64,000 nt of DNA from a virus. The stretch is from IMG/VR virus record IMGVR_UViG_3300044445_000048, positions 1 through 64,000 of that record. The stretch is one strand, 5' to 3'. Below, piece after piece: positions 10,503 to 48,662 of this stretch; positions within the stretch are counted from its first letter, which is position 1; each line of letters starts with the position of its first letter. Position numbers and translations under genes: made by a program. The notes beneath the pieces are model-generated. The model was not told the origin of the DNA, did not search any database, and saw nothing but the letters and a program-made list of their open reading frames with translations.

Positions 10503-12085
10503 GCGACGATTGGAACCAGAGCGGCGGCGGCGGCGACGATTGGGGTCGCGGGGCCGATGATGGTGACGGGTTCTCGTCGCGTCCGGACAGCACCGAATGG
10601 AACAGCACGTCGGTCGACGGCAACCCGCGGCCGCCGGAGAAGGCGCTCGCGAACGTCGAGGCGGAGGCGGCGCTGCTCGGCGCGTTGATGATCGACAACC
10701 GCGTGCTCGGCAACGTCCAGCACCTTCTGACCGGCGGCGACTTTTTCGAGCCGCTGCACGGCCGGATCTACGAGACGATCCTCAAGATCCTGAGCGAGGG
10801 CGGCCACGCCACGCCGGTGACGCTCAAGCCGTATTTTGAGCTCGACCCGTCGATGACGGAGCTCGGCGGCGTGCAATACCTGGCCGGGCTCACCGGCTCC
10901 GGCGCGGGCCTGATCGGTGCGGCATCGTTCGCCGTGCAGATCCGCGACCTGTCGGATCTCCGCAAGATGACGGTGGTGCTCGAGGAGGGCATTGCTCAGG
11001 CGCGGAACACGGCGGAGGAAATCAGCCCGGCGGCGGTGATGGAAGCCGTCACGTCGGGGCTGGCGATCGCCGGCGAGCGGCACGAGCGCGCCCCGGTGCG
11101 GTCGGCGGCCGACATGATCAAGATCTCCCGCAAGCGCATCCGCGAGATCCGCGCCGGTGCGAGCATGGGTGCGATCTGCCGATCGATCGCCGATATCAAC
11201 GACGTGCTGGGGCCGCTCGCGCCCAAGACGCTGACCGTGATCGGCGGCCGCCCGAGCATGGGCAAGTCGGTGCTCGCGCAAAGCCTCGCCTGGGGATACG
11301 CGGCCAACGATAATCCGACCGCGCTGATCTCGCTCGAAATGGCGGAGGAGGCGCTGGCGAACCGGCTGACCGCGGATCTGACGCACGCGCTGAATGATCC
11401 GGTGCCGCTCAAACTAATCCAGAATGGCAAGACGACGAACGATCACGACGCCGTGATCGACGCCGCCGCGCTGATCATGGAGAACATGCCGCTGGACGTG
11501 ATGAGCCCCGACCGGTCGACGATCGAAGCGGTCGAGGCGATGGTCGCGAAGCTGGTCGACAAGTGGAAGCGCAAGGGCAAGCCGCTCAAGGTGCTGATCC
11601 TCGACTATCTACAGATCATCGGCACCAGCCGGCGGTTCAAGGATGGGCGCGAGCGGGTCGACTATATCAGCGAGCGGTGCCTGGGCATGGCGAAGCGGTA
11701 CGGCCTCGCCGTCATCGTGCTCAGCCAGCTAAGCCGCGCCGTCGAGCAGCGTCCGGACAGCCGGCCGCAGCTATCAGATCTCAAGGAATCGGGCCGCATC
11801 GAGGAGGACGCCGACAACGTCGTGCTCGTCTACCGCGCCGAATACTACCTCGAGCGGGACAAGAAACAGGAGGGAGATAAGGGCTATGACGATTGGCTGA
11901 TCGAATATGAGCGCAGCCGCGGCAGGGTCGATCTGATCGCTGCCAAGGTGCGCCAGGGCGAAGTGGGCGTGCGCCGCGTGAAGTGGTTCGGCGCAAGCCA
12001 GGCGATCAGGGGCTCGGCGTGGGAAGCCCCGTTCATGGACAGCCGCAACGATCTCATCCCCGAAGCATGGTTGAAAGCAGCGTAA
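10499..12085 (+). CDS. dnaB: DnaB-type replicative helicase
   Basis: The N-terminal pattern is NVEAEAALLGALMIDN...HGRIYETI. Walker A is GGRPSMGKSVLAQ. ILDYLQ and LSQLSR are also present. Confidence 0.9.
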   Translation: MSDDWNQSGGGGDDWGRGADDGDGFSSRPDSTEWNSTSVDGNPRPPEKALANVEAEAALLGALMIDNRVLGNVQHLLTGGDFFEPLHGRIYETILKILSEGGHATPVTLKPYFELDPSMTELGGVQYLAGLTGSGAGLIGAASFAVQIRDLSDLRKMTVVLEEGIAQARNTAEEISPAAVMEAVTSGLAIAGERHERAPVRSAADMIKISRKRIREIRAGASMGAICRSIADINDVLGPLAPKTLTVIGGRPSMGKSVLAQSLAWGYAANDNPTALISLEMAEEALANRLTADLTHALNDPVPLKLIQNGKTTNDHDAVIDAAALIMENMPLDVMSPDRSTIEAVEAMVAKLVDKWKRKGKPLKVLILDYLQIIGTSRRFKDGRERVDYISERCLGMAKRYGLAVIVLSQLSRAVEQRPDSRPQLSDLKESGRIEEDADNVVLVYRAEYYLERDKKQEGDKGYDDWLIEYERSRGRVDLIAAKVRQGEVGVRRVKWFGASQAIRGSAWEAPFMDSRNDLIPEAWLKAA

Positions 12086-13427: not shown

Positions 13428-14209
13428 CCCAGAGCTCAGTCCAGCGTCGCGCGCGTCTCGCCGCGGCGCTGGACTCATCGGTCGACGGTGAATTCGTCAC
13501 GCTCGACGACATGATGGCGGTGTGGGGCGTGTCGAAGGGCACGATGGTCAACACCATCAAGATGATCCCGTTCTTTCCGCCGCAGGATCACGTCGGCGAG
13601 CGCAACCGGGTCTATTACAAGCGGCGCGAGGCGCTGGCGGCGTTGCAGAAGTGGGAGCACCGCGGCGACCATGTGAACGCCGATCGTCAGCGGCGGCTCA
13701 ACAAGATCATGGGCATCACCGACGAGGAGGAAGCCGGCGCTCTCCCGATCGGTGACATGATGAAGGCTTCCGCCCTTCGTGCGGAAATGGAACAGCGCAT
13801 GGTCGCGCAGCGCGCCCTCGTCGCGAAGGCCGATGTGGCGAACACCGGGGCGCGGGTGTTCGAGATTATCAGCCGGTTGCTCAGCAATCTCGGCACCGTC
13901 GTCGACCCGAACGGGATCTACCCGGCGGCGGTGCGGGAGGCGGCCGACGCCGCCGGTCATCAACGTCTGTTGCGCATACACGCTGAAATGAAGGATATGC
14001 TCGCCGGCAATGTCCATGATGCTCAACCAGATGGAGATCGAAAGGCTCGAGGCGGATCTCGCAAGCCTGGGAACGCTCGACCATCTGGCGGCCGCGGCGG
14101 AGGCATGGGCAAGCCGGCTGGACATGCTCCTGCCGCCGGGCGCGATAACGACAAATCAGTGGGCGCGAAACGACCGGTACGTCAAAGGGCGAAACGAGCT
14201 CCCGGCTAA
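13424..14209 (+). CDS. terminase small subunit candidate (Nu1-like HTH N-terminus)
   Basis: It lies immediately upstream of a GpA-type terminase. The N-terminal HTH is VTLDDMMAVWGVSKGTMVNTIK. ATGA overlap at the start. The last ~65 codons overlap terL out of frame. Confidence 0.5.
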   Translation: MTQSSVQRRARLAAALDSSVDGEFVTLDDMMAVWGVSKGTMVNTIKMIPFFPPQDHVGERNRVYYKRREALAALQKWEHRGDHVNADRQRRLNKIMGITDEEEAGALPIGDMMKASALRAEMEQRMVAQRALVAKADVANTGARVFEIISRLLSNLGTVVDPNGIYPAAVREAADAAGHQRLLRIHAEMKDMLAGNVHDAQPDGDRKARGGSRKPGNARPSGGRGGGMGKPAGHAPAAGRDNDKSVGAKRPVRQRAKRAPG

Positions 14210-16172
14210 ATTCGACTTCAACCTCACGCCCTACGTCGAGGGCATCCAAGACGCATGCGATCGCCCCGGTGTTCGCGTCGTCGCCGTCTCCGGCAACGGT
14301 CGATCCGGCAAGACGATGGGCGCGGAGAACCAGGCGCTCAAGCGCATCCAGCACGGCCCGTTCGGGGATATGTTCTGGTACATGCAGTCGAAAGACGCGG
14401 TCGAAGATTACATGGAGGAGCGCGGGGAGTGGAACCTCGAGCACCACGAGAAGATCGCCGCGAAGATTGATCACGAATGGAAGCGGCAGTCCCGCACCCG
14501 TAAGAAGATCGGGGAATCGCAATACCGCTGGCTGGCCGCGTCGAAGGGAACCCTCCGCGGTAAGGCCGCCGCCTTCATCGTTGCCGACGAGATCGACGCC
14601 TATCCGGCCCGCATCCTCAAGGGCCTGCTCACCCTCCTCCGCAACCGCCAGCGCGAATTCGGATCGGCCGCGCTGCTCTATCTGTGCTCGCACCCCGACG
14701 CCGGCACCACGATGGGCATCGACAAGATCATTCAGGATGGGCTCCGTCATTCCTGGTACTGGTCATGTCTGCATTGCGGGAAGCCGTCGTCGCCGAACCC
14801 GCACGCCAAGCAACGCATGCGGTGGAACCTAGCCGAACTGCTCGGCGAAACGGACGGCGTCGATCGCGTCGATATCCTCCGCTACGTCAAAGAGAAGTCG
14901 CGGCTGATCTGTCCGCATTGCCAAGCGCCCTATGACAACGCGGAGCGCCTGATCCTCTCACGCGAAACCGGCGCGTGGGTGCAGCCGGGCCAGGTGCTCA
15001 TCGCGCCGAAGAAGGTGGACGGAATCGAGCGGGTGCAGGACGTCATGGGCTTCTGCATCCATGCGTTCATGGCCCCGTTCATTTCGATCGGCGAAGCGGC
15101 CGAGGAATATACCGCCGCGAAATTCGATTACGACGACACCGACGACGACGAGAACCTCAAGACGGCCACCGCCTTCACGCTGGGCGAGCCGTACAGCGCG
15201 CCCGACGAGGATACCAAGCTCGAGGATTGGGAGGTGATCGCTCGCCGGATGAAGGGGGGCGGCGCGTATGTCATGGGCACCGTACCGGACGGCGTCCACT
15301 TCCTCACCGCGTTCGTCGACGTCCAGGTCGATCGCTTCGTGGTCGCCGTCATCGGCTGGTCTCAGGGGCGCGAATCGTGGCTGATCGATCGGTTCGAGAT
15401 CAAGCAATGGCCGGCGGTCGATGGGCGGCCGGCGTTCGGGCAGATCTCGCCGTTCAAGAACCTCGCCGATTGGACAGTGCTCGAGCAGGCCGTGATCGCG
15501 CAGTCCTACCCGCTGGTGCGAGATCCGAGCCTGCACCTGCCGATCGCGCGCGTCGGCGTCGACACCGGCGGCGGCGACGAGACCACGAACAATGCCCGCC
15601 TGTGGGCGTCGGCGGCGATCGCTAGGAAGAAAGATCCGATCCCCGAGTATCGCATCCAGCTTCTCAAGGGCTCGAGCTACTGGACGGGCGAGCTCTACGG
15701 AAAGCCGCGGCAGGTAACGGCCGACGATCGCGGTGCTGCGCTGCCGACGCCGATCTGGGAACGCACGCACGTCGTCAACCGGATCAAGGTGATCATCGCC
15801 AAGCGCACGAAGATCGGCACCCCCGGCCCTGGCATGATGCACGCGCCGCAGGACACGGCCGACAAGCTGTTCAAGGAACTGGTCTCGGAAAAGCTGACCG
15901 GCGATCACTGGATCAAGTCCGGCGCGAACGAAATGTGGGATCAGTGGGTGGGCGCTGAGACGCTGCGTGCTTCGTTGCAGCCTGAGCGGATCATCGAGAG
16001 CACCGGCCTCATGATCGACTTCGACCGGAAGCCGCCGTCATGGGCGCGCCCATTCAAATATGGGGTCGAGCCCGGAATCGACACCAAGGTCCGGAAGCTG
16101 GTATCGCCCTACAGCCGCATGGTCGAGGTGAACGGCGGCGAGGACGGGGCAAATCCCTATGGGGCTGTATAG
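14010..16172 (+). CDS. terL: terminase large subunit, lambda GpA family
   Basis: LTPYVEGIQDACDRPGVRVVAVSGNGRSGKT (Walker A) fits GpA. At 720 aa it is followed by gpW and a lambda-type portal. Confidence 0.9.
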   Translation: MSMMLNQMEIERLEADLASLGTLDHLAAAAEAWASRLDMLLPPGAITTNQWARNDRYVKGRNELPAKFDFNLTPYVEGIQDACDRPGVRVVAVSGNGRSGKTMGAENQALKRIQHGPFGDMFWYMQSKDAVEDYMEERGEWNLEHHEKIAAKIDHEWKRQSRTRKKIGESQYRWLAASKGTLRGKAAAFIVADEIDAYPARILKGLLTLLRNRQREFGSAALLYLCSHPDAGTTMGIDKIIQDGLRHSWYWSCLHCGKPSSPNPHAKQRMRWNLAELLGETDGVDRVDILRYVKEKSRLICPHCQAPYDNAERLILSRETGAWVQPGQVLIAPKKVDGIERVQDVMGFCIHAFMAPFISIGEAAEEYTAAKFDYDDTDDDENLKTATAFTLGEPYSAPDEDTKLEDWEVIARRMKGGGAYVMGTVPDGVHFLTAFVDVQVDRFVVAVIGWSQGRESWLIDRFEIKQWPAVDGRPAFGQISPFKNLADWTVLEQAVIAQSYPLVRDPSLHLPIARVGVDTGGGDETTNNARLWASAAIARKKDPIPEYRIQLLKGSSYWTGELYGKPRQVTADDRGAALPTPIWERTHVVNRIKVIIAKRTKIGTPGPGMMHAPQDTADKLFKELVSEKLTGDHWIKSGANEMWDQWVGAETLRASLQPERIIESTGLMIDFDRKPPSWARPFKYGVEPGIDTKVRKLVSPYSRMVEVNGGEDGANPYGAV

Positions 16173-16416
16173 TGATCTGACTGTTGCCGAGATCCGCGAG
16201 AAGATCGTGGAGATCCGGACGGCCGTCGAAACCGCGGTGATGGGCGGCGAAGTCGAGGTGATCTCCGGCGAAGGCCGGATGATGAAGGCGCGCCTGCTCA
16301 GTATCAGCGAGGCCAAGGGTCTCATCGCGCTGCTACAGGAGGAGCTCACCGATCCCGAGCGCACCGGGATTGCACGGCGCGGTCGCGCCCTTGGCGTAAG
16401 GATCGATGCACGATGA
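16159..16416 (+). CDS. gpW-like head-tail joining protein
   Basis: This 85-aa protein sits between terL and the portal as in lambda. Its helical pattern and C-terminal RRGRALGVRI resemble gpW. Confidence 0.7.
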   Translation: MGLYSDLTVAEIREKIVEIRTAVETAVMGGEVEVISGEGRMMKARLLSISEAKGLIALLQEELTDPERTGIARRGRALGVRIDAR

Positions 16417-18077
16417 AACTTCCCGAGCTCGTGGGCTACGATGAGGCCAAGGGTAAGCCCAAGATGCGGATCGCCGCCGACTTCTCGTGGGAGGCGTTCC
16501 GCCAGCTTGGCGGCGACACGCAACTCGACTTCACCCCGAAGCTGTCCGGCAACCAGGAGCAACTGCGCACCCGCGACAAGGCGGTGGCGAAGGCGCGCGA
16601 CACCGAGAACAACACCGAGGCGATCCGCGGCGGCCTCGATCGCAAGGCGAACACCGTCGTCGGTCCCGCGCTGCGCCCCGTCCCGACGCCGGATCTCCGG
16701 TGGCTGGGCCGCCCGACCGACGTCGATTGGCTGCTCGAGTATCAGCAGTCGGCGACGTCGGCGTTCAACGAATGGGCGAACGATCGCTTCCAGCGGTGCG
16801 ACGCCGAGGGCCATTACAATTTCGGCGGCTTGATGTGGCAGGCGTTCCGATCGCTCACCGGGCCGGAAGCCGAAGTCGGCGGATACATCGGCTACGATCG
16901 CGACCGCGCCGATCGCATGGGGCATAAGTGGGGCACGTTCGTCCACCTGGTCGATAGCGCGCGGATCTCGAACCCGGATGGCAAGCCCGACTATTCGTGG
17001 CTCAAGTCCGGCCGCCAGGTCGACGAGCTCGGTGCGATGGAGGGGCTCTATATCGCCACCCGTCACCCCGGCGAAGCGCCGACGTCCGACGAGAAGGTGA
17101 CGCGCAACGCGACGTGGGATTTCGTCCCGCGCTACACGGACAGCGGCCGCCCGATGGCGTTCCACTGGTTCTTCAAGCGCCGGCCGGGGATGCAGCGCGC
17201 GCTCACCTCGCTCACCGCGGTGCTGCGCACCGTCCAGCTATTGTCGCGCTTCAACGACGCGACGTTGCAGACGGCCGTGTCGAACTCGCTCATGGCGACG
17301 TTCATCAAAACGACCATGTCGCCGGAGAAGGCCGCGGAGCACATGGCTCCCGGTGATGAGGATCAGCCGAGCGAGTATTTCGAGAAGGTCGACGCCTACA
17401 GCAAGATGAACTTGCGGTTCGGCGATAAGCGCATCCCGGTACTCGGGCCGAACGACGAGATCGTGTTCGAGTCCCTCGAGGGCGCGGCGATGGATTTCGA
17501 CCCGTTTCGCAACGCCTTCCTCCGCGAGCTCGCCTCCGCGCTCAATATCAGCTTCGAGCAACTCAGCCTCGACTTCTCCCGCTCGAGCTACTCGTCGACG
17601 CGCAGCAGCCTCATGGAAGCGTGGAAGCAGGTGATGTTCGAGCGTTTCATGTTCACGAACCACGTCGCCGGCTTGGTGTACGATGCCGTGATCGAGGAGG
17701 CGTTCGCGCTCGGCATCCTGGTCGAACCGACCGGCGCACCGTCGTTCTACGAAGCGCGGCAGGCGTACACGAATTGCCGGTGGATCGGGCCGGCGCAGGG
17801 CTGGGTAGATCCGGCGAAGGAAATCACGGCCGCGCAGACGCGCGTCGCGCTGGGGATCTCGAGCCTGTCGACCGAAGCGGCCGGGCAGGGCGAGGATTGG
17901 CACGACGTTCTGTTGCAGCGGTCGCTCGAGAACAGGGTCGCCGCCGAGCTCGGTGTTGTCATCGACACCGGCGGCGGCGGCGCGCCGGGCACCAACGCCG
18001 CCGAAGATGATGAGGAGGCCGCGAACGCAAAGAGCGACGCCGCCGGCAACAAGGAACCAGCCGATGCAAATGCCTGA
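16413..18077 (+). CDS. portal protein, lambda (gpB) family
   Basis: It is 554 aa long and sits in the lambda gpB position. The overall pattern resembles lambda-type portals. Confidence 0.85.
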   Translation: MKLPELVGYDEAKGKPKMRIAADFSWEAFRQLGGDTQLDFTPKLSGNQEQLRTRDKAVAKARDTENNTEAIRGGLDRKANTVVGPALRPVPTPDLRWLGRPTDVDWLLEYQQSATSAFNEWANDRFQRCDAEGHYNFGGLMWQAFRSLTGPEAEVGGYIGYDRDRADRMGHKWGTFVHLVDSARISNPDGKPDYSWLKSGRQVDELGAMEGLYIATRHPGEAPTSDEKVTRNATWDFVPRYTDSGRPMAFHWFFKRRPGMQRALTSLTAVLRTVQLLSRFNDATLQTAVSNSLMATFIKTTMSPEKAAEHMAPGDEDQPSEYFEKVDAYSKMNLRFGDKRIPVLGPNDEIVFESLEGAAMDFDPFRNAFLRELASALNISFEQLSLDFSRSSYSSTRSSLMEAWKQVMFERFMFTNHVAGLVYDAVIEEAFALGILVEPTGAPSFYEARQAYTNCRWIGPAQGWVDPAKEITAAQTRVALGISSLSTEAAGQGEDWHDVLLQRSLENRVAAELGVVIDTGGGGAPGTNAAEDDEEAANAKSDAAGNKEPADANA

Positions 18078-19005
18078 TCTCCGCTACGTCGACCGGGAGC
18101 TCGAGGCATCGAAGGTGATGCAGCGGATGCTCAACCACCCGCTCGCGATCCGTGAAGCCAACTTCCCCATGATCCTGTCGGCGGTGCGGGCGAAGTACGG
18201 CCTCAAGTCCATCACGATGGGCGACGCCATGTTCGGCGAGGATGACATGGCCGCGCTGGCGATGAGCGGCGGCAAGCAGGCGATGGCGCGCGACGCGCAA
18301 CGCCGCAACGGCCGAATCTTCGACGAGAGCGAGGGCATCGCCGTCATCCCTGTGTACGGCACGCTGACCAAAAGCTGGGGGCTCGATCCGTGGTCGGGCA
18401 TCACCGGCTACGACGGGATCGAGGCGAAGGTGGTCGCCGCGATGCTCGACGAGAATATCCGCGGGATCTGGTTCGATATCGAGTCCGGCGGCGGCGACGT
18501 GTCCGGCCTGTTCGATCTGTGCGATCTTATCTGGTCATGCAACGCCTTCAACGGCGGCAAGCCGATCTACGCGATGGCGAACGAATACGCCTACTCGGCG
18601 GCGTATGCGATCTTCTCATGCGCCGATAAGGGGTTCGTTCCCCGGTACGGCGGCGTCGGATCGGTCGGTGTCATCACCGCGCACGCCAGCTATGCCCGCG
18701 CCTACGAGCAGGCCGGCGTCGATATCACCGTGATCCGCGGCGGCGAGGAGAAGGCTCGCATGAACGCGATGGAGACGCTGCCCGAGAAAACCCGCCTGCA
18801 CGTCCAGCGCCAGGTCGATACGATCCGCACCGGTTTCATTCAGATGGTTTCGCGAAATCGCCGTTCAGCGGTCTCCGAAAAAACTGTTCGCGAAACTGAG
18901 GGGCTGGATTATATGGGCGAGGACGCGAGGGCCATCGGGTTTGTCACCGAAGTTTGTTCTGAGCATGAGGCTTGGGGTAAACTCGTGAGGCGGGTACAAA
19001 AGTAA
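18064..19005 (+). CDS. S49 (SppA/ClpP-fold) head maturation protease
   Basis: IAVIPVYGTL...IWFDIESGGGDVSGLFDL...AYSAAYAIFSCADK follows the S49 peptidase pattern. Start trimmed to ATG 18064 (AAGGAA upstream). Confidence 0.85.
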   Translation: MQMPDLRYVDRELEASKVMQRMLNHPLAIREANFPMILSAVRAKYGLKSITMGDAMFGEDDMAALAMSGGKQAMARDAQRRNGRIFDESEGIAVIPVYGTLTKSWGLDPWSGITGYDGIEAKVVAAMLDENIRGIWFDIESGGGDVSGLFDLCDLIWSCNAFNGGKPIYAMANEYAYSAAYAIFSCADKGFVPRYGGVGSVGVITAHASYARAYEQAGVDITVIRGGEEKARMNAMETLPEKTRLHVQRQVDTIRTGFIQMVSRNRRSAVSEKTVRETEGLDYMGEDARAIGFVTEVCSEHEAWGKLVRRVQK

Positions 19006-20447: not shown

Positions 20448-20519
20448 TCAACGGCCCGTCCCATGTGGGGCGGGCCGCAACAACACCGCGCCGCTCGGCG
20501 GGTAGTATGGGGAACGACG

Positions 20520-21578
20520 ATGGACGAACTGGCGCTGGATATCTTTCGCACGGACGATTTCCGCGCGACCACGATGACGGAGCTCGTCTCCGATCAGGAG
20601 TATGTACCGTTCGAGCTCGAGGCGATGAACATCTTTGAGCCGGTCTATCTCCGGACTCAGACGGTGACGATCTACTCGGAGGAGGGCGCGCTCTATCATC
20701 GCATCCCGACCACCGAGCGCGGTGCTCCCGAGCCGGTCGCGACCCGCCGGGGCCGCGTGATCCGGCAGATCGAAGGTCCGCGTCTCGCCAAGCGCGATCG
20801 CGTGAACGCCGGCGAAGTCGCTGGCCTGCTCAGCCCCCGCCTGCCGACCGCCGATCGCCTGATGAACGCGAACGAACTGGTCGCCGAGCGTCAGAATGGC
20901 CTGATCGACGATCTCAAGATCACTCAGGAATTTTGGTATCTGGGCGGCATCCAGGGCGTGATCCTCGACGCCGACGACACGAGCGTGGTGGCGAACTATT
21001 ACGAGGACTTCAACGTCCTGCCGCCGACGCCGATCATGTTCGACTTCGACGATTATCTCGAGCCGCAGGATCAGGGCAAGCTGCGCCAGATGATCGACGC
21101 CGAGATCAACACGCCGATGATGCGTGCGCTGGGCTCGCGTCGCCGCCGGCCGGGCATGTCGATCCACGCGCTTTGCGGCGATGCCTTCTGGTCGCAGATC
21201 TCGAGCTCGCCGGCGTATGAGCGCATCATGCTCACCGACGCGGGCCGGGCCATGCTCAACCAGACGCGCCTGTGGCAGTCGATCACGATCGGCGGCGTGA
21301 CGTGGTGGCACTATTTCGGCGACGACGATCAGGTTCTGTCGGTGGCGTCGGATGAAGCGATCTTCTTCCCGATGGGCGCGAAGGATGTATTCAAGCAATA
21401 CTTCTTCCCCGGCGAGGAGCTCGGCCGCGAGAATGAGCGTGCGCAGGAGCTCTACTCGGTGGTGTCGCCGGACAACCGGATCAACATGAACGAATACGTG
21501 GATATCTACGTCCGTTCGTACACGTTGCCGGTGTGCCTGTGCCCGCAGGCCCTCACCCGCGCGAAGCTGGCCGCGTAA
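20520..21578 (+). CDS. major capsid protein, lambda gpE family
   Basis: MDELALDIFRTDDFRATTMTELVSDQEYVPFELEAMNIFEPVYLRTQTVTI matches the gpE-type N-terminal pattern. It is 352 aa from ATG 20520. Confidence 0.85.
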   Translation: MDELALDIFRTDDFRATTMTELVSDQEYVPFELEAMNIFEPVYLRTQTVTIYSEEGALYHRIPTTERGAPEPVATRRGRVIRQIEGPRLAKRDRVNAGEVAGLLSPRLPTADRLMNANELVAERQNGLIDDLKITQEFWYLGGIQGVILDADDTSVVANYYEDFNVLPPTPIMFDFDDYLEPQDQGKLRQMIDAEINTPMMRALGSRRRRPGMSIHALCGDAFWSQISSSPAYERIMLTDAGRAMLNQTRLWQSITIGGVTWWHYFGDDDQVLSVASDEAIFFPMGAKDVFKQYFFPGEELGRENERAQELYSVVSPDNRINMNEYVDIYVRSYTLPVCLCPQALTRAKLAA

Positions 21579-23632: not shown

Positions 23633-24832
23633 TTGTCATGGAACCATCGTGATCGCATCTTCGCGATCGGCATCACCATCCAGCCCGTCGCCGGCCAGTT
23701 TAACCCGCCGGCGCAGGCGGATCTGATCGGCTGCTCGAGCCCCGAGAACGGCAACGATCTGATCAGCGCGGCTGACCCGACGCAAACCGGTACGATCTGG
23801 GATCAGGCCCGGATCTATCTCGGCGAGCGCGGCACGGTTGGCGGCACCATCCCGCTGCGCGGCCCCGGCGGCGCGACGCCCCCGGTCGGCAATGGCTGGG
23901 CGGTCGGCCGGATCTTGCAGGGGTGCGGCTTCGCTGAGCAGCGTCTCGGCACGGCGACGGCGGCGGTCGCGCTGGGTGCGGGTTCGACCACCGGGCAGCT
24001 TGTGCTCAACGCGAGCGAGCCGGCGATCGATGACGTCTATGTCGGCATCCCGATCATCCACACGGCGATCGGCTCCGGCGTCCGCAGCTTCACGCTGATC
24101 CGCGATTACATCGGCGCGACCAAGACGGCGATCTTGGCGGAAACGCTGAGCCAGGTGCCGACCGGGAACTATCGCTTCCCGGCTTACCTCGCCTACGTGC
24201 TCAGCACGCTCGGCATCGCGCCGCCGCTGCTCTCGATCTCGGTGTGGAAGGATAAGAAGCGGTATGACTATCGCGACTGCGTCATTTCGTCCTGGTCCGT
24301 CGACTCCCCGGTGGCGAACGAAGCCAACCAGAGCTTCCCCTCGTTGCAGTTTTCGGCGGTGGGCGTCCCGATCGATCCGTATGCGGCAACGACGCCGACG
24401 CTGCCGGACGCAGTCAAGAACGTGCCGGTGCCGGGCAACCGCGGCGGTAAATTCTTCCTCGACTCGGTGCTGCTCGGTCACGGTGGATCGAAGTTTTCGC
24501 TCACGCTCGAGACGGGCGCGGCGTCGAACTCGAACCAGGACGCCGGTCAGGACGGCTACGATATCCTCTCGGGCTCGCGCACGCTCGAAATGGATCTCAA
24601 CCAGATGGACGTCACCGACTTCGATCTGGTCGGCCGCACGAAGGCGCAGACGCGCATCCCGATGCTCGACACCTGGGGCCTGGGCGGCGGCAACAACGTC
24701 GGCATGCTCGTGCCGAACATGGTGCTCGACCCGATGAAGCCCGGCGCGCGGAACGGCTACGTCAGCCTGACCGGCAACGGTAATCTGGTCGACGTCGACA
24801 AGTCGTTTGCGATCGCGTTCCCGTACCTCTAA
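23633..24832 (+). CDS. major tail protein candidate (TTG start)
   Basis: It is the last large ORF before the chaperone and tape-measure genes. CAGGAG lies 8 nt upstream of the TTG, and a strong terminator follows. Confidence 0.5.
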   Translation: MSWNHRDRIFAIGITIQPVAGQFNPPAQADLIGCSSPENGNDLISAADPTQTGTIWDQARIYLGERGTVGGTIPLRGPGGATPPVGNGWAVGRILQGCGFAEQRLGTATAAVALGAGSTTGQLVLNASEPAIDDVYVGIPIIHTAIGSGVRSFTLIRDYIGATKTAILAETLSQVPTGNYRFPAYLAYVLSTLGIAPPLLSISVWKDKKRYDYRDCVISSWSVDSPVANEANQSFPSLQFSAVGVPIDPYAATTPTLPDAVKNVPVPGNRGGKFFLDSVLLGHGGSKFSLTLETGAASNSNQDAGQDGYDILSGSRTLEMDLNQMDVTDFDLVGRTKAQTRIPMLDTWGLGGGNNVGMLVPNMVLDPMKPGARNGYVSLTGNGNLVDVDKSFAIAFPYL

Positions 24833-24859
24833 GGGGAACTCGTCTCAGTCGATCGGTGG

Positions 24860-24894
24860 GGGGCGGTGGGGAAACTCACCGCCCCTTTCCTTTT
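24860..24894 (+). terminator. rho-independent terminator after the major tail gene
   Basis: The stem GGGGCGGTG (24860-68) pairs with CACCGCCCC (24877-85) for 9 bp. The loop is GGGAAACT and the tract TTTCCTTTT follows. Confidence 0.75.
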
Positions 24895-24929
24895 GTCCAG
24901 ACGTGTGGCAACGATCGCGGCGTCGGTGA

Positions 24930-25005
24930 CGCGGGGTGGCGCAGTCCGGTAGCGCAACGGGCTCATAACCTGTAGGTCGCGGGTTCAAATCCCGCCTCCG
25001 CAACC
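24930..25005 (+). tRNA. tRNA-Met (anticodon CAT), initiator-like acceptor stem
   Basis: A manual cloverleaf folds as CGCGGGG/TG/GCGC-AGTCCGGTA-GCGC/A/ACGGG-CTCATAA-CCTGT/AGGTC/GCGGG-TTCAAAT-CCCGC/CTCCGCA/A. It has a C1xA72 mismatch and closely resembles E. coli tRNA-fMet. Only CC of the CCA end is encoded. Confidence 0.85.
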
Positions 25006-25548
25006 GACACAAGATCCCGAGCGAAAGCTCGCCCTGCCAGCGCCTCGAGCAAAGGCAGGAGTCGGTTCCCGACTGCACGGCGGGGAGGAACTTGCGAGTG
25101 AGTAGGCCCAAGGCTGGCGGAGCCTAGAATACCGGGAGGAGCGGCGCGGACTCGGCGCTCCCGTTGTGGCTGTGACCGGGGATGCGGTTGCGGAGGCAGC
25201 GATAAGGCATCGCCCCGTTAGGCTACGGCCGCAAGCGGGGAGGCGCTCCTCCCTACCAGTTTCAAGGTTCCCCGCGAGGGGGTCCGGTGGTCGCGGGTTC
25301 GAGCCCCGCTGACGGGTGGCGCGCCTGTTGTAGCTCAGTCGGTAGAGCACCGGATTACTTTGACGGCGGCAGGCGTGGCGACCGCGCTCCGCAAGGGTTC
25401 GGGGTTTCAAGTCACCCCCGATTGCCGCCGTCGATCAGTCCCGTTCCTCCGGGGCCGAAAGGTAAGAGGCGTCCGGCACGACACGCCGGTAGGCTGGGGT
25501 GTCCGCTGCACTGTTAAGGGCGGATGCATGGCACCCCGCCCGTCCCGC
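25006..25548 (+). ncRNA. candidate large structured non-coding RNA between the two tRNAs
   Basis: The region has no credible ORF; all six frames give Arg/Pro/Gly junk. Stems are dense, including GNRA-capped hairpins at 25018-31 (GAAA), 25270-81 (GCGA), 25388-97 (GCAA) and 25454-63 (GAAA). Nested helices lie at 25496-25537. Confidence 0.4.
25283..25354 (+). ncRNA. circularly permuted tRNA-shaped module (T-arm, capped acceptor stem, D-arm)
   Basis: The T-arm is GCGGG-TTCGAGC-CCCGC (25293-309). TGACGGG (25310-16) pairs with CCTGTTG (25324-30) across a 7-nt cap. The D-arm is GCTC-AGTCGGTA-GAGC (25333-48). TCCGG (25283-87) pairs with CCGGA (25350-54). Confidence 0.55.
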
Positions 25549-25623
25549 GGGGAGATCGTCCAACGGTTAGGACGCTGGTCTCCAAAACCAGCAATCTAGG
25601 TTCGAGTCCTAGTCGCCCCGCCA
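25549..25623 (+). tRNA. tRNA-Trp (anticodon CCA)
   Basis: A manual cloverleaf folds as GGGGAGA/TC/GTCC-AACGGTTA-GGAC/G/CTGGT-CTCCAAA-ACCAG/CAAT/CTAGG-TTCGAGT-CCTAG/TCGCCCC/G/CCA. There is one A5xG68 mismatch and the CCA end is encoded. Confidence 0.85.
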
Positions 25624-25761
25624 ACTTGCCAACTTGCGCAATTCGTCAAACTGACCGATATGCTTGTCACCGGATTGGGCGATCGGCCCCAGGCGAGCGT
25701 AGAGAAATCCGCCCGTCGTTGTCTCGATCGTTCCCGGCTATCCCCTACAGCTATGGAGAGA

Positions 25762-26007
25762 ATGATGACGCATGTGCGCGCGAAGTTTCGTGTCACCTCG
25801 ATCGAGGATTTCGGCATGTCCAAGCAGGTGAAGATGGTGGTCGCGTATGACCCCACCGCCAACGGCGAGAACGCGAACTTCACCAAGGCCACGCCATCCG
25901 GCGAGCTCAAGATGACGATCGACAACCCGGCGGCGGCCATCCAATTCGAGGTGGGCAAGCACTATTACGCCGACTTCACCGAGGCGACCGAAGCCAGCAA
26001 CGGCTGA
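25762..26007 (+). CDS. hypothetical small tail-module protein (81 aa; ATG 25753 and 25765 are alternatives)
   Basis: GGAGAG lies just upstream. MMTHVRAKFRVTSIEDFG...ENANFTKATPSGELKMTIDNPAAAIQFEVGKHYYADF looks like a recurrent small phage protein type. Confidence 0.6.
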   Translation: MMTHVRAKFRVTSIEDFGMSKQVKMVVAYDPTANGENANFTKATPSGELKMTIDNPAAAIQFEVGKHYYADFTEATEASNG

Positions 26008-28113: not shown

Positions 28114-31100
28114 TTGGCCCGCGCGTCTACGTTCACGAACTATATCCGGACGGATCTCGACCCCCGTAGCGGCACCGCATACCGGCAACTCGAGACGATC
28201 GCGAACCGGACATACGACTCGATCGCCCGGCATGCGCTGGGTGCATCGTCGGCGTCGGCGCGGGTAGATCCATCGCGGGCATCCCGCGGCGGCGCGGCGT
28301 TCGCGCTACAGACGGCGGCGGCGTCGAAGGCTGCTCAGACGCTCGCCGCCACCGAGGCGCGGATCAGCGGCGTCGCACTGGCCGGATCGGCGGCGCTCGC
28401 GCGCAACGCCACGTCGACGCGCCACGTCGCGACCGAGACCACGCTCCTCAACCGGAACCTCAACACCCTCGCCTCGACGTTGAACGTCGTGCAGGGACCG
28501 CTCGGGCCGCTGGCTGGCCGCGTCCGCGCGATCGGCACCGCCGTGACCGAGCTCGCCGGCATCCGGCTGGGCCTGGCCGCCGGCGCGGCATCGATCTTCG
28601 CGTTCGCCTCCGCGTCCAACCAATTCGTCAACGTCGAGAACAAGCTCCGGCCGCTGTACGAGACGCAGACGCAGGTGAATTCGGCGCTCCGCGACGTGGA
28701 GCGGGCCGCGATCGGCGCGCACGCCGCGCTGGCACCCACCGCGGATCTCTACTCCAAGCTGACCGCCGCCGGCCGCGACTTCCGGATTGAGCAGAGCAAG
28801 ATCAACATCGCCACGTCGGTTGCGGCGAAGGCGGCGACGATCTCGGGCTCGAGCACGGAAGGCCGCGCCGCCGGCCTGTTTCAGTTTGCGCAGGGCATCG
28901 CCTCGAACACGCTCGGCGGCGACGAGCTCAAGTCGATCCGCGAGAATATCCCCGAGCTCGCCCGCGCGCTGGCGAAGGGGCTGGGCGTCCAGGTCGGCGA
29001 TCTCAAGAAGCTGGGGTCCGAGGGCAAGCTGAGTGCGCAGGCGATCGTCGACGCGCTCGCCAAGGCCGAGGAGGAGATCAACCTCAAATTCTCGCGCATC
29101 CCCAAGACGCTGAGCGTGGCGTCGACCGAATTCGGGAACGCCTTCACGCTGATGATCGGCCGCGCTGATCAGGCGGTCGGCGTCACGTCGAAGCTCGCGA
29201 ACGTGGTGTCGGTGCTGGCCGAGAACATGCGGACGGTGGCGGCACTCTCCGCCGGCGTCGGCGCAGCTTTCATCGCACCGCGCATCACGGCGGCGGCAAA
29301 GCAGACGGTCGCGGAGACCCGCCAGCAATTCGCCGGCGGCGCGACGGTCTACGGCCCGGCCCGTCCGACTGAGGCGAACGTCGCGCTGGGCAATGCCCGC
29401 GCGGCTCGGCTGGCGGCCGACGAGAACGTGGCGGCCACTCAGCGCGAGCTCGCCGCCCGGCAGGCGAACGTCGCGGCGCTTCGTGAGGAGACCGGCGCAT
29501 ACACCGCGCAGATCGGCAAGGCGCGTGAGCAGGCCGCGGCGGCGCTCGAGGCGTCGGCTGCGCAGCGCGCCGCCGCAACGGCCGTCACGATGGAGATCCG
29601 CGAGCAGATCGCGGCGACCGGGCAGAGCGCGGAGGCGATCGCCGCCGCCGCCACGGCCGACGTCGAATCCAACGGCGCGCGGATCTCCGCCGCGGAAGCT
29701 CGCATCGCCCTGTTGCGGGCCGAGCGTGTCGAGATCGTCGAGACCGCGAACGCTCAGGCGGCGGCGGCGTCGACGGCGCGCCAGGCGGCGGTGCTTCGCG
29801 CTGCTCAGGCGACCGGCGGCGGCGGGCAGGCGTATGCTGCCGGCATCAATGCCGGCAACGCAGAGAAGCAAGCCGCGGCCGCCACCACCGCCCTCGCCCG
29901 TACTCGCCAGCAGCTTGTCGCGATCGATGCCGAGCTCGCTGCCACGGAGTCGACCGTCGTCAGCGCCATGAACGCGCAGACGATCGCCGCCGAGCGCGCG
30001 GCCGCCGCCGAGCAGATCCTCGCCGCTAACACGGCCGAGACGAACGCCGTGCGGCAGTCGACCGTCGCGGCGACCTATGCTCAGCGTCAGCGCGCGGCGG
30101 CGGCGGCGCTCACCGCCGAAGTGAAGGCGATGCAGCAGGCCGAGATCGCGGCGACGGGCGCGACGGTGGTTCGCACCACGGCGATCGAGGCCGAGACGGT
30201 GGCGATGCGCGCCGCCGCGCTGGGCACCCGCGCGCTCAAGGGCGCGATGGATCTGCTCAAGACGTCGCTGCCGATCCTCGCGATCACCGGGCTGGTCACG
30301 GTGCTCACGTATCTCGCCACGGCGGAGAGCCAGGCGGAGGCGAACGCTCGCCTGCTCGAGGACGCGCAGAACAAGCTGTCGGGCGCGATCGACTTCAACA
30401 CCGGCAAGATCAAAGAGCAGAACAAGGCGAAGCTGGCTGGGCTCAACCTCGACCTGCAAACCGGGCTCAAGGCGGCCGGCTCGAACTATCGCACGGCGCG
30501 CAGCGAGCTCGCGAACCTTGGTGGCAGGATCGGCGGCCGTGATCAGGCCGGATCGTACAGCGGCTACATCAAGCTCACCGACGCGGAGAAGAAGGCCGAC
30601 GCCCTGTTCGCGGCGTATCGCAAGCCGGGCTCCACCATGTCGGCGGAGTCGTTGCAGACGAGCCTCGACGAACTGGCGAAGTCTGAGCCGCGGCTCAAGG
30701 CGGTGGCCGATGCGGCGGCGCGCGTCAGCAGCAACGTCGTGGACAGCGCGCAGGCGTACCAGAAGCTCACCGCGCAGCAGCGCCTCCTCACCGGCGATAA
30801 CACGCTCGAGAACCGCCAGCGCGCGCAGGGCGATTTCAGCCCCGTCGCCAAGCCCGGCACCACCGGCAACCGCAGCAAGGCGCAGATCGAGGCCGCCGCC
30901 GCCGCGGAAGCCGCGCAGACTGAGCTCGAGCGTGCCCGCGCCAACCTCAAGAGCGTTCGTGCGAACGGCGCTCAGCAGGGTGAGAGCGAGATCGATTACC
31001 AGCACCGGCTGGCGGCGGCGATCCAGGGCGTCAAGTCGGCGACGGAGGCTCAGGCCAGTGCTCGCAAGGCGGATACTGCCGGCCGGGTGCAGGCTCGAGC

Positions 31101-34047
31101 AGCGGCGCGCGACGCGATTCAGGATGCGCGCGACGAAGCCGAGCAGCGTCAGAACCTCGCCCTGCTCACCTTGGCGCGGAGTGGGAAAGACCCGAACAGC
31201 GACGAGTATATCCAGCAGCGCGAGCAGATCCTCGCCACATACGATAAGGAGGTAAACGCCCTCGACGCGAGCCGGGCAGCGTCGAACAGCGCGGCGCGCG
31301 CGCAGATCCAGGATGCGTTGAAGGTCCGCGCGGCGGCGGCGTCAGCGGGCGAGGCGATCGCCGATATCGCCAGCCGGTACGATACCGCGCCGCGCGCTCT
31401 CGATCGCGCCCGCGCCGACGTGCGAGATCTGCTCGCCCTGGTCGGGCAGCAGGTGGACGGCATCGCGCCCAAGACGGCGGAAAACCCCACTGGCCGCCGC
31501 CGCTTCACGACGGAGGATTACGAGCAGCGCGCCGCCGGCGTGCAGACGGGGCTGCGCAAGCCGTTCCAAGACATGCTCGACGATTACGCCCGAGAGGAGG
31601 AGATCCAGAAGGCGCTGCTCGACGGGCGCACCGCGGAGGCGCAGGCCCTCCGTCAGAAATTCGAGCTCGTCGACCGCGTGGGCGTGCTCGAGGCCGGGCA
31701 ATACGATCGCCTGTTGCAGGCGGCCGACCGGCAGGAGCGGGTCAACGCTATCCTACAGGATCGCGAGCGCATCACCGCGACGCTGTCCGGTGTGGTCGAC
31801 GACATGCGGAGCTCGGTCGAGGAGCTCCTAGCGGATCTCCCGAACAACGCGCCCAAGGCGGCGGCCGGTTTCGCGAAGCGCCTGTTCGCCAGCTATCAGG
31901 GCGCGTCGGCGCGCATCGTCACCGACCAGCTATTCGGCGGCGTCGACCAGCGGGTGAAGGATCTGATCAGCGGCCGCGACGCGGTGCAGCGGGCAACCGA
32001 CTTCGCGGCCACGCAATTCGGCACCACCGGCATGGCTGCGCAGAGCCTCGCCGGCGCGTTCAACACCGCGAAGGATTTCATGCTGCGCCTGGTCGGGCAG
32101 ACGCCCGGCACGAACACCGCGCCGCTGTCCGCGCCGGCGTCGACCGAAGCTCCGGTCAATCCGTACCTGCCCCGCGCAACCCTCCCGAGCGGCGTGCTGC
32201 CGGAGGGCACGACGTTCGGCGCGTTGCTCAATCCGGGGAACTCCGTCGACGCGGTGTTGAGGCTGGCGAGCGGCAGGATCGATTCCGCGTCGACCATCCT
32301 GTCCGAACAGATCGCGTCGGCTGCACCGGTCACGGCGTTCGATGCGACCACGGCATCGGCTGGATCGCTGCGCGCCGGCATCGACGGCCTCACCTCGAGC
32401 GTCAACGCGGCCGCCAGCGCGGCGGCGGGCATGGCGAACGGTCTCGCCGCCGGCCCGATCGGCGGCCAGAGCCAGGCCACGACGCAGGCCCTCGTCGACG
32501 TCGCCACCAAGGTGAGCTCGGCTGTCGCGGAGAGCGGCGAGGACATCATCGTCACGGCCAAAAAGCAGGTCGACCGCGGCGTCATCCAAGATCCGTTCGC
32601 CGGCAAGGCGGTGGGCGTGCTCAAGGATCTCGGCATCAAGCTGCCGGATCTGAACCGGCAGAAGCCGCCGTCCATCCGAGAGGTGTATAACGAGACCGGC
32701 AAGGCGATCGGCGAGAAGCTCGACAATGCGCTCGGCACCAAATTCCTGGGCAGTCTCGGCGCGAAGTTTGGCGACGCGCTCAAGGGTGCCGGCACCGGTC
32801 AGCTTGCATCTGGCATCGCGTCGAAGCTGGGGATCAAGCAATCCCAGACGGGCGCGGCGATCGGCGGCGCGATCGGCGGCGCGACGGGCATCCCCGGTGC
32901 CGATATCGTCGGCGGCCTGATCGGCGGCACGGTCGGCGGCCTGTTCAAGAAAACCAAGTCGGCATCGGCCGGTGTGACGATCGACGGGTTCGGCGCTGCC
33001 GCCGGCGCGGCGACGGGCACGAAGTCACGGCAGGCGGGTGCGACCTCGCTCGCCGGCGGCGTCGCGAGCAGCATCCAGCAGATCGCCGATCAGCTTGGCC
33101 TGTCGCTCAGCGGCTCCTCGAACGTGAAGATCGGCACGTACAAGGATCAGATCCGCGTCTCGACCAACGGCACGCCGATCGGCGGCAAGGGCAGCAAGGG
33201 CGCGATCACCTTCGCCGATGAGCAGCAGGCGATCGAGTATGCCGTTCGCGACATGATCAGCGATGGCGTGCTGCCGGGGATGAGTGCGGCGTCGAAGCGC
33301 ATCCTGCTCGCCGGAAAGGATCTGTCGAAGCAACTCGAGAAGGCGACGCTGATCGAGAGCATCCCGAAGCGGCTCCTCCGTCTCACCGATCCGGTGCGCG
33401 CGGCCGTGACGGAGCTCAACGATGAATTCATGAAGATCAAGGCGGCGCTCGACGAGGGCGGGGCGTCGGCTGAGCAGTATGCGCAGGCGCAGAAGCTCTA
33501 CGATCTTGAGCGGGTGCAGGCGATCCAGAGTGCGCAGACGGCGACGAGCACGGCGATTGATGATTTCCTCAAGCAACTGAACCAGACGTCGGACAGCCCA
33601 CTCAACAAGGCGACGGTGTACGACAACGCGAACGCGACCTTCCAGAAGCTCGTGTCCGACGTGCAGGCTGGCAAGGTGGTCGACGCGGATGCGCTGGTCG
33701 AGGCGGGCAAGAACTTCAACGATGCCAGCCGCGCGCTCAACGGCTCGAGCTCGGGGTATTTCAGCGACTTCGACTTCCTCCGGCAGATCCTCGAGAAGGG
33801 CAAGACGAACGCCGCCGCCGCGGTGACGGGCCTGCCGACCAGCGATCTCCCCGGCTCGCCGTTCGGCGTCATGTCGGATGCGATCTCGGCGAGCTCGAAC
33901 GCAACGGTGCAGGCGACGAACCAGCAGACGGCCGTGCTCAACCAATCGTTGCAGGCGATCCTGCAAAAGCTGGGCGGCGCGGGCGTAATCTCGTCGATGG
34001 ATAACCTTGCGGCGTTCCGTCAGACGGGGTTCGCATACGCCAATTAA
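28114..34047 (+). CDS. tape measure protein (1977 aa, TTG start)
   Basis: It is a very long Ala/Gln-rich helical protein. A Gly-zipper hydrophobic segment (GAAIGGAIGGATGIPGADIVGGLIGGTVGGLF) lies near the C-terminus. The position is canonical for a tape measure. Confidence 0.9.
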   Translation: MARASTFTNYIRTDLDPRSGTAYRQLETIANRTYDSIARHALGASSASARVDPSRASRGGAAFALQTAAASKAAQTLAATEARISGVALAGSAALARNATSTRHVATETTLLNRNLNTLASTLNVVQGPLGPLAGRVRAIGTAVTELAGIRLGLAAGAASIFAFASASNQFVNVENKLRPLYETQTQVNSALRDVERAAIGAHAALAPTADLYSKLTAAGRDFRIEQSKINIATSVAAKAATISGSSTEGRAAGLFQFAQGIASNTLGGDELKSIRENIPELARALAKGLGVQVGDLKKLGSEGKLSAQAIVDALAKAEEEINLKFSRIPKTLSVASTEFGNAFTLMIGRADQAVGVTSKLANVVSVLAENMRTVAALSAGVGAAFIAPRITAAAKQTVAETRQQFAGGATVYGPARPTEANVALGNARAARLAADENVAATQRELAARQANVAALREETGAYTAQIGKAREQAAAALEASAAQRAAATAVTMEIREQIAATGQSAEAIAAAATADVESNGARISAAEARIALLRAERVEIVETANAQAAAASTARQAAVLRAAQATGGGGQAYAAGINAGNAEKQAAAATTALARTRQQLVAIDAELAATESTVVSAMNAQTIAAERAAAAEQILAANTAETNAVRQSTVAATYAQRQRAAAAALTAEVKAMQQAEIAATGATVVRTTAIEAETVAMRAAALGTRALKGAMDLLKTSLPILAITGLVTVLTYLATAESQAEANARLLEDAQNKLSGAIDFNTGKIKEQNKAKLAGLNLDLQTGLKAAGSNYRTARSELANLGGRIGGRDQAGSYSGYIKLTDAEKKADALFAAYRKPGSTMSAESLQTSLDELAKSEPRLKAVADAAARVSSNVVDSAQAYQKLTAQQRLLTGDNTLENRQRAQGDFSPVAKPGTTGNRSKAQIEAAAAAEAAQTELERARANLKSVRANGAQQGESEIDYQHRLAAAIQGVKSATEAQASARKADTAGRVQARAAARDAIQDARDEAEQRQNLALLTLARSGKDPNSDEYIQQREQILATYDKEVNALDASRAASNSAARAQIQDALKVRAAAASAGEAIADIASRYDTAPRALDRARADVRDLLALVGQQVDGIAPKTAENPTGRRRFTTEDYEQRAAGVQTGLRKPFQDMLDDYAREEEIQKALLDGRTAEAQALRQKFELVDRVGVLEAGQYDRLLQAADRQERVNAILQDRERITATLSGVVDDMRSSVEELLADLPNNAPKAAAGFAKRLFASYQGASARIVTDQLFGGVDQRVKDLISGRDAVQRATDFAATQFGTTGMAAQSLAGAFNTAKDFMLRLVGQTPGTNTAPLSAPASTEAPVNPYLPRATLPSGVLPEGTTFGALLNPGNSVDAVLRLASGRIDSASTILSEQIASAAPVTAFDATTASAGSLRAGIDGLTSSVNAAASAAAGMANGLAAGPIGGQSQATTQALVDVATKVSSAVAESGEDIIVTAKKQVDRGVIQDPFAGKAVGVLKDLGIKLPDLNRQKPPSIREVYNETGKAIGEKLDNALGTKFLGSLGAKFGDALKGAGTGQLASGIASKLGIKQSQTGAAIGGAIGGATGIPGADIVGGLIGGTVGGLFKKTKSASAGVTIDGFGAAAGAATGTKSRQAGATSLAGGVASSIQQIADQLGLSLSGSSNVKIGTYKDQIRVSTNGTPIGGKGSKGAITFADEQQAIEYAVRDMISDGVLPGMSAASKRILLAGKDLSKQLEKATLIESIPKRLLRLTDPVRAAVTELNDEFMKIKAALDEGGASAEQYAQAQKLYDLERVQAIQSAQTATSTAIDDFLKQLNQTSDSPLNKATVYDNANATFQKLVSDVQAGKVVDADALVEAGKNFNDASRALNGSSSGYFSDFDFLRQILEKGKTNAAAAVTGLPTSDLPGSPFGVMSDAISASSNATVQATNQQTAVLNQSLQAILQKLGGAGVISSMDNLAAFRQTGFAYAN

Positions 34048-48521: not shown

Positions 48522-48662
48522 TCAGCGTCCGGTGAGGGCGTGAAGCACGCCAGTGATGAAGGGCAGGCCCTTGGCGAGCACGGTGAGGCCGGCGATGATC
48601 AGCGCGCTACCGATGATTGCGGCGAGCATGAACGTGCCGATCGCGTCGTGCAGGATCTTCAC
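48522..48662 (-). CDS. small membrane protein (46 aa, GTG start), absent from the ORF track
   Basis: GTGA overlap with the clamp-gene stop. It has high GC3 and reads VKILHDAIGTFMLAAIIGSALIIAGLTVLAKGLPFITGVLHALTGR. Confidence 0.55.
   Translation of the reverse strand: MKILHDAIGTFMLAAIIGSALIIAGLTVLAKGLPFITGVLHALTGR

Follow-up and report, generated by a model that had tools for sequence, protein, structure and literature searches.

Results

A loop-closed, permuted tRNA-like module in a tailed phage

The window, by which we mean the whole 64,000-nucleotide stretch of viral DNA analysed here (positions 1 to 64,000 of IMG/VR record IMGVR_UViG_3300044445_000048), carries on its + strand at 25283–25354 a 72-base module with a tRNA-like fold, its halves swapped and its acceptor end closed by a loop. 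The module is real, and its structure was correctly described by an earlier, sequence-only reading, whose segment sequences and coordinates are exact, base for base. On balance, we lean towards reading it as a tRNA mimic of the YrlA class, an L-shaped 'effector' domain as in bacterial Y RNAs, standing here without a Ro60/Rsr partner. The module would work like the YrlA tRNA-like domain, its descent from which is almost certain, and is probably a functional orphan variant of a known RNA class. The fold class has already been described, phages included; the new part is a context without Ro60, recurring in the phage lineage beside an initiator-like tRNA.

Read 5′ to 3′, the module consists of the following parts (numbers in parentheses are tRNA positions):

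25283–87, +, TCCGG, 3′ strand of the anticodon-stem analogue, hereafter AC stem (39–43)
25288–92, +, TGGTC, variable loop (44–48, with G46 and C48)
25293–25309, +, T arm GCGGG-TTCGAGC-CCCGC, the same sequence as the T arm of a Novosphingobium YrlA
25310–16, +, TGACGGG, 5′ strand of the acceptor-stem analogue, hereafter AS
25317–23, +, cap TGGCGCG, giving an AS loop of 3–7 nt depending on stem extension
25324–30, +, CCTGTTG, 3′ strand of the AS
25331–32, +, TA, equivalent to U8-A9
25333–48, +, D arm GCTC-AGTCGGTA-GAGC
25349, +, A26
25350–54, +, CCGGA, 5′ strand of the AC stem (27–31), which opens into the flanking RNA

Pairing in both stems is as originally proposed. The AS forms 7/7 pairs, four Watson-Crick and three G.U, and can be extended to 8–9 pairs by T25317.G25323 and G25318-C25322. 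The AC stem forms 5/5 pairs and reaches 5–7 bp with an inner extension, U25288-A25349 (in the register of the Rfam alignment), and an outer extension of two G.U pairs. The elbow nucleotides are complete (U8, A14, G15:C48, G18-G19, A21, G46, T54-T55-C56, A58 and G53-C61), G15:C48 and G46 being additions to the set listed before. There is no anticodon loop, the AC stem running into unrelated RNA on both sides. The folding energy is not significant (cloverleaf –25.9 kcal/mol; minimum free energy (MFE) fold –33.4 kcal/mol; shuffles, mean –29.7 ± 3.3) and does not single the structure out, so the case rests on the tRNA-specific nucleotides and on stem closure.

When the halves are re-joined in tRNA order with any 7-nt loop, ARAGORN calls a tRNA. 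The native 25283–25354 receives no tRNA call from ARAGORN or from the Rfam tRNA model, only the artificially re-joined sequence being accepted. This acceptance, the presence of all class I tRNA parts and the location of the 3′ half upstream of the 5′ half would be explained if the module were a genuine circularly permuted tRNA gene, or encoded a two-piece tmRNA in permuted order, and its product were processed to a translationally active molecule; alphaproteobacterial tmRNA genes have the same permuted order. We nevertheless give this explanation practically no credence. No anticodon-loop sequence bridges the ends, which makes the likeness to algal and archaeal permuted tRNA genes raised in the sequence-only reading probably not pertinent: in permuted tRNAs of the Cyanidioschyzon type the anticodon loop is reconstituted after circularisation at a bulge-helix-bulge site, and bacteria are not known to have the splicing endonuclease on which algae and archaea rely to mature such tRNAs. 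A tmRNA combines a tag reading frame and pseudoknots with a degenerate D arm and a tRNA-Ala-like acceptor that has G3:U70 and an encoded CCA. The module has a full D arm and its pair 3:70 is U.G, not G.U; the ARAGORN tmRNA search was negative, and no Rfam tmRNA family matched at E ≤ 10.

The module matches the tRNA-like domain of YrlA RNAs

YrlA RNAs are defined by a GNCGAAN0–1G motif near the 5′ end, a tRNA-like domain and a same-strand location no more than 4 kb from rsr (PMC4201824), and most of them look like tRNAs that have been circularly permuted and whose acceptor stems are closed by a loop (bioRxiv 10.1101/312249; structure PDB 6CU1). An Rfam scan, a check that the sequence-only reading had proposed, gave the module no tRNA or tmRNA assignment but a YrlA match (RF02553) at 25285–25355, local, with 31.9 bits and E = 8e-5 in a 1-kb search, covering model positions 23–88 of 114. 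The consensus structure of RF02553 has the layout of the module (AC stem, variable loop, T arm, closed AS, D arm, AC stem), so that the YrlA topology given in the sequence-only reading is right, and the T and D arms of the module agree with the consensus. Compared with the YrlAs of Chen et al. 2014 (PMC4201824), the module has the same part order, near-identical T and D arms and all nucleotides of the elbow tertiary pairs. The outer model positions, which form the Rsr-binding stem, are unaligned; only the tRNA-like domain matches, and the module is therefore not a complete YrlA. Further traits of the YrlA class are binding by Rsr and modification by TruB (Ψ55) and DusA.

BLASTN of the module against GenBank phages returned collinear whole-module matches with 74–79% identity in Mycobacterium phages (Lumos group), Brevundimonas jumbo phages (Kikimora, Gurke) and Enterococcus Schiekvirus phages (EfV12-phi1). 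In the three that were examined (Lumos, Kikimora and EfV12-phi1), the match lies within ~600 nt of a same-strand gene for a 456–510 aa 'RNA-binding protein'. The protein beside the Kikimora modules consists of Pfam TROVE and vWA_Ro60, and those beside the Lumos and EfV12-phi1 modules of DUF2828, DUF7788 and VWA, not Pfam TROVE. These matches to RNAs beside Ro60-like genes bear out the statement of the sequence-only reading that some phages encode YrlAs next to Rsr/Ro60.

Like the arrays of these three phages and Yrl1/2 of Thermus phage phiLo (PMC12135203), whose closed modules have an 8-bp AS and share their strand with nearby tRNAs, the window module stands beside tRNA genes. Those phages encode their own Ro60-like protein and 2–4 modules, whereas the window has one module and no such protein. 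A repeated motif precedes each of their modules, GGCGYAG in Kikimora and ACAGCAA in Lumos and EfV12, not GNCGAA; the window has no such repeat. The Kikimora array (L170) comprises ~4 modules, each after GGCGYAG. An annotated Kikimora 'tRNA-Ser' (L170 4434–4508, record 158412–158486) overlaps a YrlA-like module (Rfam YrlA 4459–4557) just upstream of the TROVE gene and is probably a miscalled Y RNA. In Lumos (L169), a Band-7-like lipoprotein gene and a tRNA-Tyr lie just upstream, an arrangement that resembles the band-7-associated tRNA reported alongside RtcB systems.

A Novosphingobium replicon has the canonical rtcR-rsr-yrlA-yrlB-rtcB-rtcA operon, and its YrlA scores 68.8 bits. One relative of the window phage sits in a Sphingomonadaceae metagenome-assembled genome (MAG), and this family, in which Novosphingobium has the Rsr/Rtc system, is a possible host clade of the window phage.

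Stem closure separates the module from tandem tRNA junctions

Tandem tRNA genes likewise place a T arm before a D arm within ~25 nt, with comparable local similarity and YrlA-model score, which raises the question of whether the module combines the 3′ half of one decayed tandem tRNA gene with the 5′ half of the next, the two being possibly duplicates of one tRNA. Two IMG/VR pattern scans, in which a D arm had to come after a T arm, returned mostly junctions of tandem tRNA genes, and a degenerate T-arm look-alike lies downstream of the module at 25399–25421. A genuine junction (L173 4001–4075) scores 29.6 bits with the YrlA model, and some junctions match by BLAST as well as true YrlAs do, so that neither a model match nor BLAST is diagnostic alone. 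At a junction, however, the acceptor and anticodon-stem strands come from different tRNAs and are unpaired with each other, and complete tRNAs lie on both sides.

We measured closure for all T-arm-to-D-arm arrangements present in the fetched loci (~1.65 Mb), an arrangement counting as a junction when it overlapped two ARAGORN tRNAs. At least seven consecutive acceptor pairs combined with 5/5 AC pairs were found in 0/388 true tandem-tRNA junctions. Among the tRNA-free arrangements, 11/71 form a separate cluster with at least eight acceptor pairs and 4–5 AC pairs, and the window (nine acceptor and five AC pairs), Lumos and Kikimora all fall inside it. Neither missing half has left a detectable remnant: the score for a 5′ half in the upstream flank was no better than any of 500 shuffles, and that for a 3′ half in the downstream flank was matched by 293/500. 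Together with the failure of ARAGORN and Rfam to call a tRNA at the module, and with an independent closed copy in a related phage (see below), these results largely refute a decayed junction, which we regard as very improbable.

Across 10 closed modules, 7/7 AS and 5/5 AC pairs vary on both sides and the D stem and loops are nearly invariant; 96.7% of cells are paired, a percentage that is partly circular since the set was chosen for pairing, only the diversity of pair types being informative. Closed modules without a Ro-like gene in the 5–14 kb flank are present in IMG/VR tRNA arrays L071, L090, L099, L100, L112, L141 and L148, and orphan closed modules may be common in phages. In L148, two closed permuted modules (4873–4954 and 5181–5256) lie directly upstream of an RtcB ligase gene (5404–6654), with no Ro60-like gene in the 7.9 kb examined. 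The locus of the junction that scores 29.6 bits, L173, is part of the Mycolicibacterium plasmid pCBMA213_1, where a GOLLD RNA (907–1331; Rfam 196.7 bits) heads an array of >20 tRNA genes.

The module recurs at the same site in a related phage

The module lies in a non-coding island of ~920 nt between the gene for a tail-region protein (23633–24832) and the next coding sequence (~25753). In order, the island holds a terminator, a tRNA-Met, a GC-rich spacer of ~540 nt that contains the module (25006–25548) and a tRNA-Trp:

24858–24894, +, intrinsic terminator (13-bp GC-rich stem and T tract) that ends the tail-protein gene and starts the island; weak BjrC68 terminator-type match in Rfam
24930–25005, +, phage tRNA-Met (CAT), initiator-like, with a C1:A72 mismatch (ARAGORN; Rfam tRNA 62.9 bits)
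25107–25281, +, predicted long irregular hairpin domain between tRNA-Met and module (z = –2.64, 2/200 shuffles)
25360–25434, +, predicted stable three-way junction with a 12-bp closing helix (z = –4.16, 0/200 shuffles; 25358–25436 folded)
25549–25623, +, phage tRNA-Trp (CCA) that closes the island (ARAGORN and Rfam)

Through the tail protein, we fetched ~55 relatives with 46–62% identity. After the tail gene, most of them have nothing or an open reading frame (ORF), and some have different tRNAs. A tRNA-Met occupies the site in six genomes (the window, L179, L041, L182, L183 and L189), the site-matched homologues being identical at 61–68 of ~78 positions. This tRNA-Met is the conserved core of a variable RNA island and the conserved upstream neighbour of the module.

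L179 (NCBI MAG GCA_040384165.1, contig JAWVHB010000704.1 of 68.6 kb), whose tail protein is 60% identical, carries at the same site a terminator, the tRNA-Met and a closed module. The L179 module begins 42 nt after tRNA-Met and reads AGGGG AAGGCC GCGGG-TTCGAAT-CCCGC CCGGTCC-ACGCAC-GGATCGG TA GCTC-AGTTGGATA-GAGC AG CCTCT; it scores 40.7 bits with the YrlA model, and its unconstrained MFE fold is the permuted cloverleaf. Relative to the window, 7/7 AS and 3/5 AC pairs are changed on both sides with pairing kept, and the T and D arms are nearly unchanged. Changes of this pairing-preserving kind are what the sequence-only reading had asked of homologous loci, their absence being a point against the structure. 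The window and L179 islands have only tRNA-Met and the module in common. Either pairing was kept through heavy divergence or two modules were acquired at one site, and either argues against a decaying accident.

In L041 (5590–5690), L183 (4270–4390) and L189 (~3960–4060), a common structured element of the form ...GRAAGGGTAGGGGCGGCGG-loop-CCGCCGCCCC... follows tRNA-Met; it matched no Rfam family in L041 or L183, the two that were scanned. The window has a weak look-alike of it at 25454–25478. L041 also contains a tRNA-like sequence at 5881–5965, whose acceptor stem is GGGCCGG/CCGGCCC and whose T arm is canonical; it receives no tRNA call from ARAGORN or Rfam.

The locus lacks Ro60 and the Rsr-binding part of YrlA

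Several observations weigh against the reading of the module as a YrlA-class mimic, in addition to the score of the genuine junction given above. The 31.9 bits of the module lie below the Rfam gathering score of 69, and the full model is not covered; Ro60-adjacent phage modules score 28–45 bits with this model, so a sub-threshold score is normal for phage copies. The motif GNCGAAN0–1G is absent 5′ of the module (+ strand, 25006–25282), where the most similar sequence is AGCGAAAG at 25022–29, within a hairpin capped by a GAAA tetraloop. The sole copy lies 3′ of the module at 25454–61, 100 nt downstream, with ~0.9 expected by chance for the length. Inverted-repeat search and constrained folding gave no evident terminal 5′/3′ stem of the kind that encloses a Y RNA; a weak 6-bp outer helix, 25080–85 with 25543–48, was the only candidate and is not convincing.

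As the sequence-only reading had noted for a TROVE/Rsr ORF, and as a further search for Rsr and RtcB genes in the 64-kb window found, there is no Ro60/TROVE, DUF2828-type, RtcB or RtcA gene in these 64,000 of the 64,480 bases of the record, and hence no rsr/Ro60-like gene within 4 kb of the module or genome-wide. Four divergent Ro60-like proteins gave only E > 1 in tblastn against the window, iterated jackhmmer with TROVE-type and DUF2828-type seeds found no match among six-frame ORFs of at least 100 aa, and the ORFs of 400 aa or longer all have another assignment or are antisense shadows. The ~50 other relatives are without the module, which makes it accessory. Finally, the window and L179 modules are 74% identical to each other versus 76–78% to unrelated YrlAs, and they may be independent acquisitions rather than orthologues. 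Since two defining features of YrlA fail, we file the module as an orphan variant and not as a YrlA; the earlier interpretation is supported for the tRNA-like domain (model positions 23–88) and not for a complete YrlA.

The same absences could mean that the module has no function and is left over from a Y-RNA/tRNA array, a piece of which was recombined from a Ro60-encoding phage or a host rsr locus, lost Ro60 and the Rsr-binding part, and kept a tRNA-like domain that is still to decay. Behind the tail gene lies a variable 'moron' hot spot in which relatives hold nothing, ORFs or different tRNAs, the module is missing from most of them, and its flanks have no homologues, all of which fits such an origin. 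A leftover would have to have kept every conserved elbow nucleotide and all 12 closing pairs intact, however, and for the divergent, equally closed module of L179 to occupy this site, pairing must have been maintained or modules acquired repeatedly. The recurrence of closed modules without a nearby Ro-like gene in other phage tRNA arrays also speaks against it. In our judgement, the leftover explanation has a small but real chance of being right.

The flanks of the module and rejected candidates

Another explanation makes the module one domain of a larger structured RNA of ~540 nt (25006–25548), in which it would serve mainly as a tRNA-like signal for processing or stability, as RNase P/RNase Z 'punctuation' or as a nuclease-resistant cap, rather than as a Y-RNA effector. 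The flanking domains are predicted to be unusually stable (the z scores listed above), the island is bounded by tRNAs with a terminator before it, and the authors who described YrlA proposed nuclease protection as a role of the tRNA fold (PMC4201824). The flanks, on the other hand, are not conserved in L179, where the module has other neighbours, and they match no Rfam family. We see only a slim chance for this larger RNA and continue to prefer the orphan YrlA-class mimic.

The hairpin domain at 25107–25281 terminates in a small hairpin, CCCC-GCGA-GGGG (25270–25281), which abuts the module, and none of the fetched loci matches it by BLAST. For the flanks of the island, we found no homologues in INPHARED phages, in ~190 fetched loci or, with a window-specific pattern, in IMG/VR. 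An arm of the three-way junction (25399–25421), GGGG(T)-TTCAAGTC-(A)CCCC, is the T-arm look-alike mentioned above; it has an oversized loop, belongs to repeat family D2 and gives a weak tRNA-model alignment. Extra T-arm-like hairpins are mentioned for YrlB and D. radiodurans RNAs in the Y-RNA literature.

Other candidates were tried and rejected. For a permuted group I intron-exon arrangement or an intron-bearing tRNA, no intron or ribozyme family matched at E ≤ 10 in 24800–25800, and the alignment that joins the D arm to the downstream T-like hairpin reaches only 17.7 bits. An attP-type 3′ tRNA half does not fit a 5′ half that follows directly and a site inside a structural operon. For an anti-tRNA or primer-binding site, we found a 13-nt perfect inverted repeat between the 3′ end of tRNA-Met (24994–25006) and 25185–25197; an equal or longer repeat occurred in 5/60 island shuffles, and L041 has none.

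Genome setting

The window covers 64,000 of the 64,480 bases of the record. Relatives of the tail-region protein sit on 59–68 kb contigs, which together with the record length indicates that the window is essentially the whole genome, that of a small tailed phage of siphovirus type. The genome is GC-rich (~66%), and its main assigned genes are:

10499–12085, +, DnaB helicase
14010–16172, +, gpA-type large terminase
16413–18077, +, lambda-type portal
17953–19005, +, S49 protease
20463–21578, +, E-type major capsid protein
23633–24832, +, tail-region protein, with a single occurrence in the protein collection
28114–34047, +, tape-measure-like ORF of 1977 aa

The module thus occupies a moron site among the structural genes of a 64-kb siphovirus-type genome, a further difference from known YrlAs. 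Downstream of the island, a small ORF (25753–26007; phrog_6978) matches no Pfam family, and its homologues are unlinked to modules. Elsewhere, a 786-aa ORF (48659–51019, –) has the N-terminal and central domains of the DNA polymerase III beta clamp in its first 260 residues, followed by a long unassigned extension, and a 1384-aa ORF (54007–58161, +) has Calx-beta domains.

Discussion

In the working model that we consider most likely for the orphan YrlA-class mimic, the module would be transcribed from the + strand in a single RNA island that includes tRNA-Met and tRNA-Trp and is inserted between the gene for the tail protein and the tail-assembly/tape-measure genes. A precedent is D. radiodurans, whose Y RNAs are co-transcribed with a tRNA (PMC4201824). 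The tRNA processing enzymes would cut out both tRNAs and so free the spacer RNA, in which the module would fold through the elbow contacts G18-G19/Ψ55-C56, U8-A14, G15-C48 and T54-A58. Because it resembles a tRNA from the elbow side, the module could then be bound by tRNA-recognising host factors.

The YrlA of M. smegmatis, which has a 7-bp AS, is cleaved by RNase P and gains a CCA tail, and the authors attribute the cleavage to an AS of 7 bp or more stacked on a T stem of 5 bp (PMC4201824). The window module has a stack of the same dimensions, and its closed AS of 7–9 bp would allow a putative RNase P nick at G25323/C25324, leaving a two-piece tRNA-like RNA. It differs in that no C is encoded after the discriminator (TGACGGG-T-GGCGCG) and in having no rsr neighbour, whereas the M. 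smegmatis YrlA is Rsr-bound and adjoins rsr. In its final role, the module might plug into host Rsr/PNPase/Rtc RNA repair or occupy a tRNA-binding host factor independently of Ro60.

A more specific version of this idea gives the module a Ro60-free function of its own. Delivered with the initiator-like tRNA-Met, nicked by RNase P to a two-piece mimic and CCA-tailed, it would act on a host system that recognises tRNAs, for instance by offering tRNA-directed defence or toxin nucleases, or the RtcR/RtcB damage response, a decoy or trigger-blocker, or it would capture the host Rsr-PNPase complex. We offer this as a conjecture and think it doubtful in this detailed form.

For the annotation of phage genomes, the module is a warning that T-arm/D-arm pairs in tRNA islands can be closed tRNA mimics and not broken or miscalled tRNAs. 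The YrlA domain has so far been defined, and searched for, only beside Ro60. Its presence alone in a small, nearly complete phage genome, and its recurrence at the same locus in a relative, next to a phage initiator-like tRNA, suggest that the domain can function without a phage Ro60 or a recognised Rsr site, and one small RNA in a 64-kb phage would be a simple genetic system in which to ask what the domain binds.

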